The notes below the pieces were generated by a model that was given only the letters and a program-made list of their open reading frames with translations, was not told the origin of the DNA and did not search any database. A program made the translations under genes and the position numbers. A stretch of DNA of 63,856 nucleotides, counting the filler. It is 5 parts of 5 records of this genome, joined end to end, with 100 filler letters (N's around TTAATTAATTAA, not from the genome) between each part and the next. Parts side by side here need not be neighbours in the genome. Positions count along the whole stretch, not along the records: positions 58,563 to 63,856 come from SRR22947727_6005; 4 more parts are not named here. One strand, given 5' to 3'. Below are positions 1,738 through 62,516 of the stretch, one piece after another. Position 1 is the first letter of the stretch; each line of letters begins with the position of its first letter.

Positions 1738-1751
1738 GATTTACCCGGTCT

Positions 1752-1836
1752 CCCTGGAGTCAGATTCCCTTCCGTGTGATGACCTGGGACCGGGGAAGGT
1801 GACACAGGGCTCACGGAGGGGAGTCAGACTTCAGGG
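1752..1836 (-). ncRNA. mraW RNA motif (actinobacterial cis-element between mraZ and rsmH)
   Basis: Minus strand forms a long hairpin (CCCUG/CAGGG, UCCCCUCCGUG/CACGGAAGGGA, CCUG/CAGG) closed by ACC-UUCCCC-GGU. CUUCCCC loop and position match the known mraW motif. Confidence 0.85.
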
Positions 1837-2268
1837 CTACAAAAGCCCAGGAATCACCTCCTCTTCGGTGTCAGAGAAGGCTTGCTCGCGTTCTTCGTAG
1901 TACTGATCCCATGCGGTAGAGGACCAAATCTCAGCTCTGTTGCCGGCGCCAATCACTGTCAGTTCGCGCTCGAGCCCGGCGTAGTCGCGCAGCGCCGGAG
2001 GAATCGTGACCCGGTTTTGCTTATCGGGGATTTCGGAGGAGGCGCCTGACAGAAACAGACGCAGAAAGTCTCTACTGGCCTTCGAGGTCAGGGGTGCCTC
2101 TCGAAGCCGCTCAACGTGGGCATCGAAGTCTTTAGAGGTGAAGACGTAAATACATCTCTCTTGACCGCGGGTAAGAACCAGACCGTTCGCGAGCTCGTCG
2201 CGAAATCTTGCGGGGAGAATCACTCGGCCTTTGTCGTCGAGCTTGGGGGCGTGCGTACCCAAGAACAT
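1837..2268 (-). CDS. mraZ: Division/cell wall cluster transcriptional repressor MraZ
   Basis: [32 protein letters not shown]; 143 aa. Confidence 0.97.
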
Positions 2269-59329: not shown

Positions 59330-60253
59330 TTAGTCTAGACACCAGCGCATAATCGCTTTTTGCGCATGCAACCGGTTTTCAGCCTCATCGAAGACCACCG
59401 AATGCGGCCCATCCATGACAGAGCTGGTGACCTCTTCGTTGCGGTGTGCGGGCAAGCAATGCATGAAAAGAGCATCCGGCTTGGCCTGCGCCATCAACGC
59501 ATCATCAACCTGATAGGGGCGCAATTGATTGTGGCGCCGCTCGCGTGCGGTTTGGCTGTCGTGCATAGAGATCCAAGTGTCCGTCACCAACAGATCCGCG
59601 CCGCGCACCGCTTCGTTGACGTCCCGCTGGATCTCGATCTTCACACCTTTGGCCCGCGCCTTCTCAACAAATTCCGCCTCGGGATCCAGCGTCGCTGGGC
59701 CGGCAAAAACGAAATCAAAGCCAAATTGCCCGGCCGCATGGATGAAGCTTGCACAAACGTTGTTACCATCACCCGTCCAGACCACGCGCTTGCCCCGAAT
59801 AGAGCCGCGATGCTCTTCAAACGTCAAGATATCGGCCATGATTTGGCATGGATGGCTGCGGTTGGTCAGCCCATTGATCACCGGAACACTGGCATAATCG
59901 GCCATTTCCAGCAGGGTTGCCTCCTCAAAAGTGCGGATCATGATCATGTCCACATAGCGGCTCAAAACCCGCGCCGTATCCGCGATGGTTTCCCCATGGC
60001 CCAGCTGCATTTCGCTGCCGGACAAAACCATGGTCTGCCCACCCATCTGCCGCACGCCAAGATCAAAGCTCACGCGCGTGCGCGTGGATGGCTTTTCAAA
60101 AATCAACGCCACCATCTTGCCCTCAAGTGGCCGTTCAGCATCCAACATGCCTTTGGACAGGCCGGCACGCGCCGTCTTGATCCGCGCGGCCTCATCCAAA
60201 ATGCCACGCAAATTTTGGGGATCAACCTGATCAATATCGAGAAAATTCTGCAT
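59330..60253 (-). CDS. argF: Ornithine carbamoyltransferase
   Basis: [29 protein letters not shown]. Confidence 0.97.
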
Positions 60254-60324: not shown

Positions 60325-61503
60325 TCATTGCGCAGATTGAACCGTTTGCGCCGCCGTCTCCAACCGCTCCAGCGCCTGAGCAATCTCCGCGTTTGAAATA
60401 GTCAACGCCGGAAGCACACGCACGACGTTTTCGGCCGCAGGGACGGTCAACACCTCGCAGTCATATCCGGCTGTGACCACATCCATATTGCTCGCCTTGC
60501 ATTTCAGACCCAGCATCAACCCCGCGCCCGTCACGCCCGCAAACACATCAGTATATTGCGCGACCAACCCTTCAAGACCTTGGCGCAGCGCCCCAGATTT
60601 GCGGCTCACCTCTGCCAGAAATTCAGGAGCAGCCACCTCATCCAAGACAGCACTTGCCACCGCACAACCCAAGGGATTGCCACCATAGGTCGAGCCATGT
60701 GTCCCTGCCCCCATTCCGCTTGCAGCCTCTTCATTCGCCAAAACCGCCCCGATGGGGAAGCCCCCACCAAGACCCTTGGCCACCATCATAATATCGGGAT
60801 CAATCCCTGCCCACTCATGGGCAAACAACTTCCCTGTCCGTCCCACACCGCATTGCACCTCATCGAAAATCAGCAAGATCCCGTGGCTGTCACAAAAATC
60901 GCGCAGGCCTTTCAAACAATGATCCGGCACAGGGCGGATACCGCCCTCCCCCTGGATCGGCTCGATCAATATGGCGGCGGTCTTTTCATTGACTGCCGCA
61001 TGCAGCGCGTCGTGATCTGCAAATGGCAATTGCACGAAACCGGGCAGCAAGGGCCCAAAGCCTTTCGTCAGCTTCTCCGCACCAGCAGCTGCAATCCCTG
61101 CGGAGGAGCGCCCATGAAACGCCCCCTCAAATGCAATAATTTCCACGCGCTCTGGCTGACCCTTGTCATAGAAATATTTGCGCGCCATTTTCACGGCCAA
61201 TTCACAGGACTCCGTCCCAGAGTTGGTAAAAAACACGGTATCGGCAAAGGTCAGATCCACCAGCTGATCGGCGAGTTTTTGTTGCGCGGGAATATGATAC
61301 AAATTGGAGGTATGCCACAATTGACCCGCTTGCGCCGTCAGCGCCGCCACCAGTTTCGGATGCGCATGTCCCAGGCTGTTGACCGCAATCCCAGCGCCCA
61401 AATCCAAAAATCGCCGACCGTCATCGCCGGTCAACCAGCTGCCTGTGCCAGAGACAAACGAAAACGGAGCGCGATTATAGGTGGGCAGAATCGAAGGGAT
61501 CAT
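60325..61503 (-). CDS. argD: Acetylornithine aminotransferase
   Basis: GIAVNSLGH, NSGTE, FHGR, EPIQGEGG, DEVQCG, AKGLGGG, HGSTYGGN; upstream of argF. Confidence 0.93.
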   Translation of the reverse strand: MIPSILPTYNRAPFSFVSGTGSWLTGDDGRRFLDLGAGIAVNSLGHAHPKLVAALTAQAGQLWHTSNLYHIPAQQKLADQLVDLTFADTVFFTNSGTESCELAVKMARKYFYDKGQPERVEIIAFEGAFHGRSSAGIAAAGAEKLTKGFGPLLPGFVQLPFADHDALHAAVNEKTAAILIEPIQGEGGIRPVPDHCLKGLRDFCDSHGILLIFDEVQCGVGRTGKLFAHEWAGIDPDIMMVAKGLGGGFPIGAVLANEEAASGMGAGTHGSTYGGNPLGCAVASAVLDEVAAPEFLAEVSRKSGALRQGLEGLVAQYTDVFAGVTGAGLMLGLKCKASNMDVVTAGYDCEVLTVPAAENVVRVLPALTISNAEIAQALERLETAAQTVQSAQ

Positions 61504-61604
61504 CGGAAAGCCTTTCTAACGAGGAGGGAGTGAGAAAACCAAAATTGAGAAACACGCATGGGAGCGCAGAAACACAAGGGGCCGGCCGCGGTGCAGCGGT
61601 CATA

Positions 61605-61649
61605 TCAGCGACGTCGGCGTCGCAAGGTGATTTCAATCATCGTTTTCAT
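61605..61649 (-). CDS. Putative arginine-rich leader peptide (MKTMIEITLRRRRR) of argD-argF
   Basis: ATG AAA ACG ATG ATT GAA ATC ACC TTG CGA CGC CGA CGT CGC TGA, ending 101 nt before argD. Confidence 0.75.
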   Translation of the reverse strand: MKTMIEITLRRRRR

Positions 61650-61655
61650 GCCCTT

Positions 61656-61684
61656 ACCATACCAAAGCCCCCCGGCCATGAAAA
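61656..61684 (-). promoter_or_regulatory. Candidate promoter for leader-argD-argF
   Basis: TTTTCA, 17 bp, extended -10 TG-N-TATGGT; leader ATG begins after 6 nt. Confidence 0.55.
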
Positions 61685-61712
61685 GTCCAAATATCCGCTG
61701 CGGCAAATCCCT

Positions 61713-62516
61713 TTAAGATTTCAACCGATAGCCCCGCGCCAACCAAAACCAGGCCAGACCAACCGCACAGATATTGGCACCGCAAATCACGGCCAAAGCC
61801 ATCCATGGGCTGCCATCGGAAACCCCCAAAACACTGTAACGGCCGCCGTCGATGATATAGAACATCGGGTTCACATGGATCAGTGGCTGCATCATTGAGG
61901 GCAAAGCTTGGATCGAATAGAAGGTCCCCGACAAGAAGGCCAAGGGTGTGATCACAAAATTTGAAATCGCGGCCATCTGGTCAAACTTATAGGCATAGAT
62001 GCTGCCCAAAAGCCCCAGCGCGCCCATGAACATCCCGCCCAAAACCACAAAAGCCAATGTCCAAAGCGGGTGGGCAACCCAAATGCCGAGGCTCAGCCCC
62101 ATCGACAGACAGAGCACCGCACCAATCACCAATCCGCGACCAATTCCGCCCGCCAAGAATCCCACGGTCATCTCCAAAGGCGACAGGGGCGGCATCAGCG
62201 TGTCGACAATGGAGCCCATGACTTTCGCCGAAAGCATGGAAGAGGAGGTATTGGCAAAAGAATTTTGTATCACCGTCATCATCAACAAACCCGGTGCCAG
62301 AAAGCTGACATAATCAAACCCCATCACATCCGAGCGCCCCGGCCCGATGGCAATGGAAAAAACCAATAGAAACAAACCTGCAGTGATCAATGGCGCAAAA
62401 ATTGTCTGCTGCCAAATCGCCAAATAGCGCATATTTTCGCGGCGAATGAGCGTCCAAAGGCCCAGCCAATTGACCCGTCCAAAGCGTCTGACGCCGAATT
62501 GAGAAACATTTGCCAC
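61713..62516 (-). CDS. ABC-2 type transporter permease (YadH-like)
   Basis: QTIFAPLIT, FLAPGLLMM..IQNSFAN.SSS, PLAFLSGTFYS, NPMFYIIDG. Confidence 0.9.
   Translation of the reverse strand: MANVSQFGVRRFGRVNWLGLWTLIRRENMRYLAIWQQTIFAPLITAGLFLLVFSIAIGPGRSDVMGFDYVSFLAPGLLMMTVIQNSFANTSSSMLSAKVMGSIVDTLMPPLSPLEMTVGFLAGGIGRGLVIGAVLCLSMGLSLGIWVAHPLWTLAFVVLGGMFMGALGLLGSIYAYKFDQMAAISNFVITPLAFLSGTFYSIQALPSMMQPLIHVNPMFYIIDGGRYSVLGVSDGSPWMALAVICGANICAVGLAWFWLARGYRLKS

Follow-up and report, generated by a model that had tools for sequence, protein, structure and literature searches.

The window, as we call the whole 63,856-nucleotide (nt) stretch of DNA analysed here, carries a short upstream open reading frame (uORF) that precedes argD and argF, two genes of arginine biosynthesis, in a genome of the family Rhodobacteraceae. 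All features of this leader are on the minus strand of the window, and positions count along the whole stretch (Table 1). As the preliminary description of this DNA had reported, the uORF consists of 14 codons and ends in five consecutive Arg codons (61649-61605, minus strand). The coordinates also bear out its placement on the strand of both genes, the argD ATG lying exactly 101 nt beyond the uORF stop. ArgD of the window is 98% identical to the orthologue of Rhodobacteraceae bacterium IMCC1909. In six frames, the 63.9 kb hold 18 runs of at least four Arg codons and five runs of at least five, and the leader uORF is the sole short ATG open reading frame (ORF; at most 24 codons) of the window that has a terminal run of at least four Arg and a stop within three codons. 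No Rfam match was obtained in 60800-62400 at E<=10, so that no curated family covers the leader; the sole gathering-level Rfam match in the window is an mraW RNA motif (RF01746, 53 bits) at 1742-1842 (minus strand).

An extended -10 box had also been proposed just upstream of the uORF. The motif is present, and at the orthologous site of a relative, locus L032, a promoter was called (TTCCCA-17-TATGAT with the TG, ending 6 nt before the ATG), but the consensus scan of the window calls no promoter at the leader. No Shine-Dalgarno sequence precedes the window uORF. Just past the permease gene that lies upstream, inside the spacer of the leader promoter, a weak hairpin is followed by CTTTGG (61662-61686, minus strand). 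The equivalent site of L032 (L032:2320-2337) was called terminator-like, and such a site may terminate the upstream operon at the beginning of the leader promoter.

Table 1. Coordinates of the leader, its signals and its neighbouring genes in the window
Feature	Coordinates	Strand	Remarks
Leader uORF, MKTMIEITLRRRRR, 14 codons and stop	61605..61649	-	ATG at 61649, TGA at 61607-61605
Five consecutive Arg codons, CGA CGC CGA CGT CGC; presumed sensing codons	61608..61622	-	
argD (acetylornithine aminotransferase), first gene of the putatively regulated unit	60325..61503	-	ATG at 61503
argF (ornithine carbamoyltransferase), second gene of the unit	59330..60253	-	Named from the preliminary description and the ORF sequence
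-35-like hexamer TTTTCA	61679..61684	-	Read from the sequence; 17-nt spacer to the -10
Extended -10, TG-N-TATGGT	61656..61664	-	Last base 7 nt before the A of the uORF ATG
Arg-codon hairpin, 6 base pairs (bp), 4-nt loop; replaces helix P2 of other genera	61608..61623	-	-9.5 kcal/mol, z = -2.66
Post-stop hairpin, beginning 6 nt beyond the stop; possible stem for pausing, termination or antitermination	61582..61599	-	-7.9 kcal/mol, z = -0.57, unexceptional
U-rich tract after the hairpin	61568..61577	-	Aligned tract of L036 and L037 has six to seven U
Small second hairpin, 4 bp	61554..61567	-	-5.3 kcal/mol, z = -1.1; double-sided changes at pairs 86/97 in 2 of the 8 sequences
Pyrimidine-rich, G-poor tract; may serve for Rho loading	61518..61553	-	
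Shine-Dalgarno-like AGAAAGG of argD	61511..61517	-	Position conserved in the Planktomarina-type alignment
Upstream gene, membrane protein of 267 amino acids	61713-62516	-	ABC-2-type permease, from sequence alone

Conservation and coding constraint

Relatives were collected by an ArgD search with one genome per species, which gave 80 Rhodobacteraceae loci. The closest of them by ArgD are IMCC1909 (98%) and Planktomarina metagenome-assembled genomes (MAGs; 83-96%); Sulfitobacter, Ruegeria, Leisingera, Phaeobacter and others are 72-79% identical. A scan recovered a short ORF with at least three Arg codons in a row, 100-176 nt before argD, at 76 of the 80 loci, and an Arg-ending leader with two to three Arg was found by eye at the remaining four (L034, R-C-R-R-S; L035, two Arg then the stop; L040, R-R-G-R; L082, two Arg), so that all 80 close relatives carry the leader. 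Among evenly drawn genomes of the family, each represented by its best ArgD match, 24 of 29 usable loci have a leader with at least three Arg, three more have two Arg, and two have none. In divergent members of the family (ArgD 59-69%), the leader is present at 16 of 40 loci and at none of the eight where ArgD is at most 62% identical. At the level of the class (ArgD 52-60%), an ATG ORF ending in at least three Arg and a stop occurs at 1 of 40 loci. Thirty loci from a search for the nearest genomes turned out not to be kin, their argD being 40-46% identical to that of the window, and they served as an outgroup only; a C-terminal Arg-run ORF was found at none of the 30. One genome, G001, shares 27% of the sampled 31-mers of the window, yet its ArgD is 42% identical, which suggests that another part of the window is near-identical in a distant organism and is possibly mobile or highly conserved DNA.

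The preliminary description had proposed to look for such uORFs upstream of argD orthologues and of the other genes of the pathway. The first expectation holds across the Rhodobacteraceae and the second fails, since a shared Arg-run uORF was found at 0 of 30 loci when the 350 nt before argG, argH, argJ, argB, carA and argC were inspected in five Rhodobacteraceae genomes. Six of these 30 loci carry unrelated Arg-rich ORFs. At one argC locus (L209, genome G044), a short ORF ending in P-R-R-stop is found about 105 nt upstream of the gene; it was not seen at argC in the other four genomes. Elsewhere in two genomes, none of 13 further copies of the 11-mer lies inside a leader-like ORF; two distant sites of genome G042 (L213 and L221) share the same frame of about 38 codons with the CGACGCCGACG motif, a repeated element of unknown kind. 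The wide conservation in the family, together with the lack of a counterpart at the other arg loci, indicates that the leader is a family trait specific to argD-argF.

We then considered what is conserved in the leader. When the run was located by nucleotides only, as three or more CGN triplets and hence independently of frame, 125 unique loci were retained. An open ATG frame reaches the run in the Arg frame at 115 of them, and in the other two frames at 36 and 5; a stop follows within five codons after the run at 113 loci in the Arg frame, versus 8 and 12 in the others. The ATG and the run are separated by 3 to 17 codons, and this distance changes by whole codons only. Codon choice is also peculiar. 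The 560 Arg codons of the leaders are CGA (45.5%), CGC (45.5%), CGT (5.9%), CGG (2.3%) and AGA (0.7%), while the 1605 Arg codons of argD at the same loci are CGA (8.8%), CGC (54%), CGT (16%) and CGG (19%). CGA, described earlier as typically rare, is rare in the relatives' argD and five-fold enriched in the leaders, where CGA, CGC and CGT together make up 97% of the Arg codons; as the genomes are related, these codon and frame counts do not represent independent events. CGA, CGC and CGT are read by a single inosine-containing tRNA-Arg, and CGA is poorly decoded.

The start of the uORF was studied in 114 unique leaders anchored on its ATG. T is found at -36, -35 and -34 in 66, 96 and 70 of these leaders, T at -12 and A at -11 in 64 and 58, and C at -1 in 85. 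The promoter-like boxes end about 6-8 nt before the ATG, at a distance that is fixed across leaders, and a Shine-Dalgarno-like tetramer precedes the uORF ATG in only 13 of the 114. Since promoter-like boxes stand so close to the ATG and no Shine-Dalgarno sequence accompanies it, the uORF is probably leaderless, and the transcript probably starts at or beside the uORF AUG.

RNA structure and the search for an output step

The Arg codons of the window had been described as folding on themselves. The hairpin is indeed predicted (3 of 200 shuffles are as stable), but the AUCA/UGAU extension that had been added to it, although it can be drawn, is outside the predicted minimum-energy fold. Eight leaders of the Planktomarina type keep this Arg-codon hairpin, without covariation, together with a hairpin 6-9 nt past the stop, the U-rich tract and a pyrimidine-rich run up to the Shine-Dalgarno sequence; they lack helix P1, the TTGAC motif and the last hairpin, all three described below for other genera. 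The post-stop stem is stronger in relatives, reaching -9.2 kcal/mol in L036, where it has a U run and was called terminator-like, and -11.7 kcal/mol in L032. In the same eight leaders, RNAalifold pairs 61630-61636 with 61487-61493 (minus strand), i.e., uORF codons 5-7 with argD codons 4-6; this 7-bp helix is conserved, shows no covariation and could mask the argD start region.

In the other genera, single-sequence folds and duplex scans suggested three helices. The 5' end, which holds the start codon region, pairs with the stretch just past the stop (P1), the last Arg codons pair with the stop-codon region (P2), and a GC hairpin follows P2 (P3). A plain MAFFT alignment of 26 diverse leaders had yielded three spurious pairs with RNAalifold and was replaced by a more homogeneous set and then by a covariance model. 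This model, R1, was built on 14 sequences carrying P1-P2-P3 and matches 64 of the 80 relatives; it does not match the window at E<=1, and the Planktomarina leader is a shorter form. The cells of P1-P2-P3 are paired at 87.9%, compared with 80.3% in shuffles (none of 500 reaches the observed value) and 29-39% for slid partners, and 20 of 25 pairs show double-sided changes, in an R1 alignment that was fitted to the model and favours the structure. After P3, a C-rich, G-free stretch is found instead of a U tract.

Further downstream, all 63 unique non-Planktomarina leaders (L038-L110, L161-L178) share, 55-73 nt ahead of the argD ATG, an unvarying TTGAC that is absent from 61504-61604 of the window. 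An A-rich patch precedes TTGAC and a GCCC...GGGC hairpin follows it. The hairpin past TTGAC has a mean z of -1.56 over 64 sequences, a set that includes L032, a Planktomarina-type leader whose TTGAC lies within the uORF; next come AAAGGA and the start of argD. Two promoter assignments of TTGAC were tried and rejected: as a sigma-70 -35 box, it is followed by no conserved or canonical -10, and a sigma-54-like reading by eye (GGCAC-N5-GGGC) fits some lineages and fails in Ruegeria-type sequences. In type-B leaders, e.g., L064:2331-2515, GATC occurs four times in fixed roles, at the uORF start, in the strand after the stop, at the flank of the Shine-Dalgarno sequence and at the argD start, with ATGATC at both starts. 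This repetition suggests that a local hairpin could sequester the Shine-Dalgarno sequence and AUG of argD.

We searched the stretch between the uORF and argD for the step by which a leader of this kind could act. Terminator-like sites were called in L036 and L063 and not in L064, and of 65 aligned leaders, 44 have no more than two U in the 10 nt behind the post-uORF hairpin. The strand that a stalled ribosome would free pairs with its own downstream hairpin at z < -1.5 in only 9 of 67 leaders; in a Phaeobacter/Leisingera-like subset, about 12 bp form between the freed strand and the 5' arm of the downstream stem. When the ribosome footprint was masked in folding, neither the downstream hairpins nor the argD start region switched consistently. 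What all leaders have in common past the uORF is a hairpin and then a C/U-rich, G-poor spacer. The 101-nt spacer of the window contains 34 C, 22 G, 34 T and 11 A, and the C/G ratio of the spacer is 1.51 in the 114 leaders, versus 0.87 in a control upstream stretch, with 108 of the 114 above 1.2. Such a C-rich, G-poor spacer, a feature of the Rho-dependent leader-peptide systems tnaC, mgtL and speF orf34, is expected of a Rho loading site and hints at Rho.

Proposed mechanism and competing explanations

On this comparative evidence, we consider it likely that the element is a translated and probably leaderless leader peptide that acts as a sensor of charged arginyl-tRNA and exerts control in cis over argD-argF. 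The sensor half of this proposal is well supported; the output half is not. The transcript would begin with the A of the ATG (61649) or beside it, and its 5' end would be where a 70S ribosome initiates. When Arg-tRNA (the CGA/CGC/CGU isoacceptor) is plentiful, the ribosome would pass the five Arg codons and leave at the stop. The 5' RNA could then fold, into the Arg-codon hairpin and the next hairpin in the window and into P1-P2-P3 in other genera, and transcription, or the transcript, would end before argD, within the C/U-rich, G-poor spacer. Under a shortage of Arg-tRNA, the ribosome would stall on the terminal Arg codons and hold the 5' fold open, so that premature termination would decrease and more polymerases or messages would reach argD-argF. 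We infer the translation, the stalling and the output step of this scheme, the direction of its response, which follows from pathway logic only, and with them the regulation of argD-argF by arginine.

Several observations weigh against this proposal. Some concern the sensor. The Arg run is near-invariant as nucleotides, and the synonymous variation that had been anticipated within it is small: the 12-mer CGACGCCGACGC is exact in 67 of the 129 unique loci with a match. Substitutions relative to the 12-mer consensus number 67, 42 and 28 at codon positions 3, 1 and 2, counts that are confounded by run-length variants and by the inclusion of loci without a leader. Near-fixed nucleotides in the run imply a constraint at the nucleotide level (RNA pairing) or on codon choice as well. 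Moreover, naturally weakened runs exist in L034, where the run reads R-C-R-R-S, and in L035, where the stop comes after two Arg. Both leaders (L034:2355-2400 and L035:2352-2390) belong to Planktomarina MAGs, that of L034 having arisen through two non-synonymous changes with a changed -10 as well, and these natural variants could reveal what the Arg run is needed for.

The other adverse observations concern the output. Folding of the whole intergenic region gives no stability beyond that of shuffles (z = +1.36), no terminator-like site was called in the window leader, and the window stem homologous to the terminator of relatives reaches only -2.4 kcal/mol. A general 2:3 antiterminator was tested and rejected: own partners average -9.38 kcal/mol and swapped partners -9.24, with a median rank of 36 of 67. 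The downstream complementarity of the freed strand does not exceed that of shuffled strands either (-17.8 vs -19.0). In L036, the terminator stem starts 6-9 nt past the stop, which could mean more read-through when translation is fast, i.e., the opposite logic. The invariant TTGAC may belong to an RNA element or to an internal promoter from which argD would be transcribed without the leader. Finally, assembled metatranscriptome contigs run from the permease gene through the leader into argD and are uninformative on starts, ends and levels.

The attenuator reading of the preliminary description is thus partly supported. The conserved frame, the conserved stop and the conserved spacing between promoter and ATG speak for it, whereas no pair of terminator and antiterminator could be identified in the window and the general test of an antiterminator was negative. 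Because an antiterminator was not found as a general feature and the terminator calls are mixed, we do not file the leader as a classical attenuator. For the output, the chances that it consists of premature termination of either kind before argD seem to us evenly balanced. Rho-dependent termination is favoured over an intrinsic terminator and can be put forward as a tentative candidate; control of argD translation or of mRNA decay, the next option, is somewhat doubtful, and intrinsic termination is unlikely.

The proposal has to be compared with other explanations of the same sequences, the first of which keeps the uORF and changes the sensor. The nascent peptide itself, with its C-terminal poly-Arg often placed after His-Ile, might halt the ribosome at the stop or close to it once free arginine or ornithine occupies the exit tunnel, and the arrest would set the fate of the downstream RNA. 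Tryptophan acts in this way on TnaC, ornithine on SpeFL, and arginine on the fungal arginine attenuator peptide. Between the Arg run and the stop there are always 0-3 codons, M-I-K-x-x-H-I precedes the run in many leaders, and the geometry of L036 fits a ribosome held at the stop. However, the peptide is poorly conserved outside the Arg run (compare MSTTHPFTLRRR... and MDNRAPLFVRRRR with MKTMIEITLRRRRR of the window, which has no His), and the bias to CGA and CGC and against CGG is a codon or tRNA signature, which sensing by the peptide would not require. We regard it as improbable.

The covariation of P1, P2 and P3, the near-invariant nucleotides of the run and a 5' end base-paired in P1, as in many small RNAs, would also suit a structured non-coding RNA, either a leader that binds a protein or a ligand or a small RNA, whose reading frame is incidental. 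Yet frame, start and stop are kept far above those of the other two frames, the distance from ATG to run varies by whole codons only, and Planktomarina keeps the ORF without P1 or a match to R1; no Rfam family corresponds to such an RNA. These features make an incidental frame more improbable still.

A constraint on the DNA itself is harder to reconcile with the data. The tandem CGACGC could be an operator for an unknown factor that acts on a promoter at TTGAC, the ORF being a by-product: the run is a near-invariant direct hexamer repeat, and the 63 unique non-Planktomarina leaders all keep TTGAC unchanged at a spacing from argD that would suit a promoter. However, TTGAC is missing from the window and its Planktomarina relatives although the ORF is retained in them, no canonical -10 follows this motif, and the repeat stands 60-110 nt upstream of it at a variable distance. 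Such an operator would moreover leave the constraints on the ORF and the RNA covariation unexplained, and we consider it highly improbable. As for a chance ORF in a GC-rich intergenic palindrome, which reads RRRRR on both strands in a window with five runs of at least five Arg, conservation in all 80 close relatives and broadly in the family refutes it as far as comparative data can, and we give it practically no credit.

Relation to known leaders and to arginine control

The leader peptides TrpL, HisL, LeuL, ThrL, IlvL and PheL, encoded by trpL, hisL, leuL, thrL, ilvL and pheL, are the classical attenuators of the amino-acid operons of enterobacteria. Like them, the leader described here is a short ORF on the same strand before biosynthetic genes, with a run of cognate codons near its end and these codons within an RNA helix. 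Unlike them, it uses arginine, it is probably leaderless, neither a GC hairpin with a U-tract terminator nor an antiterminator exclusive of it could be demonstrated in the window or as a general feature, and only argD-argF of the pathway is affected.

Parallels are also found in other bacteria. In Sinorhizobium meliloti, trpL/rnTrpL has a 14-codon leader ORF on a leaderless mRNA that starts at the uORF AUG, and it is a Trp sensor and transcription attenuator that releases a small RNA (PMC10117765, PMC6614838). The arg leader resembles it in being alphaproteobacterial, in its 14-codon ORF and in its leaderless-type start; the differences are that it would sense Arg and that neither an equivalent terminator nor a released RNA could be assigned to it. 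In Rhodobacterales, uORFC-8-2 precedes cysS, and its conserved AUG uORF has tandem Cys codons inside the first of two stems, the second being terminator-like in some members, an arrangement read as ribosome-mediated attenuation (PMC8632094). It belongs to the same bacterial order as the arg leader and likewise has tandem cognate codons, but these code for Cys, and the gene under its control encodes a tRNA synthetase. argD is not mentioned in the report's main text, and its supplements might list an argD motif. Mycobacterial polycysteine leaderless small ORFs also carry a tract of cognate codons and are described as exerting operon-level control by ribosome pausing (10.1101/834739). They share with the arg leader a leaderless-type sensing in GC-rich bacteria, and the arg uORF differs in ending 100-170 nt before argD.

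Two systems use Arg codons themselves. In the speF leader of Salmonella, consecutive Arg codons of orf34 report the arginine supply, with Rho and alternative folds involved (PMC6386406). The ring-like structure of this leader recalls helix P1 of the arg leaders, but it is gammaproteobacterial, has two Arg codons in a 34-codon ORF, precedes a polyamine gene and includes RNase G decay in its output (PMC6386406). In Staphylococcus aureus, rare Arg codons in rbfL make the expression of the next gene dependent on arginine (PMC13009471). There, when arginine is limiting, pausing blocks the ribosome-binding site next to it, and a biofilm regulator is repressed; the opposite logic and the short distance set rbfL apart from the arg leader (PMC13009471). 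Arg-codon sensors are thus known in speF orf34 and rbfL, neither of which controls arginine synthesis.

In the literature searched, which left subscription journals and supplements outside its scope, we found no description of an Arg leader for arginine biosynthesis. In textbooks, the pathway is controlled by the ArgR repressor. One report states that outside Gammaproteobacteria this repressor is absent (PMC5343134), and we found its C-terminal domain (PF02863) in 0 of 5 genomes of relatives, versus 8 of 14 control genomes. We would tentatively go one step further and suggest that a whole family of abundant marine bacteria, among which no ArgR was found, may gauge arginine through a leaderless poly-Arg peptide whose output departs from the textbook, being either a "ring" helix, joining the 5' end with the post-stop stretch, that is coupled to Rho or RNA decay, or a nascent chain that senses free arginine or ornithine.

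The conserved Arg-codon leader offers a concrete and testable answer to how arginine synthesis is controlled in the Roseobacter group, to which Planktomarina, one of the most abundant coastal lineages, belongs. Since the usual terminator logic was not found, the leader may reveal a non-classical output step. If the proposal is true, arginine would join the amino acids that are sensed by ribosome-mediated attenuation.

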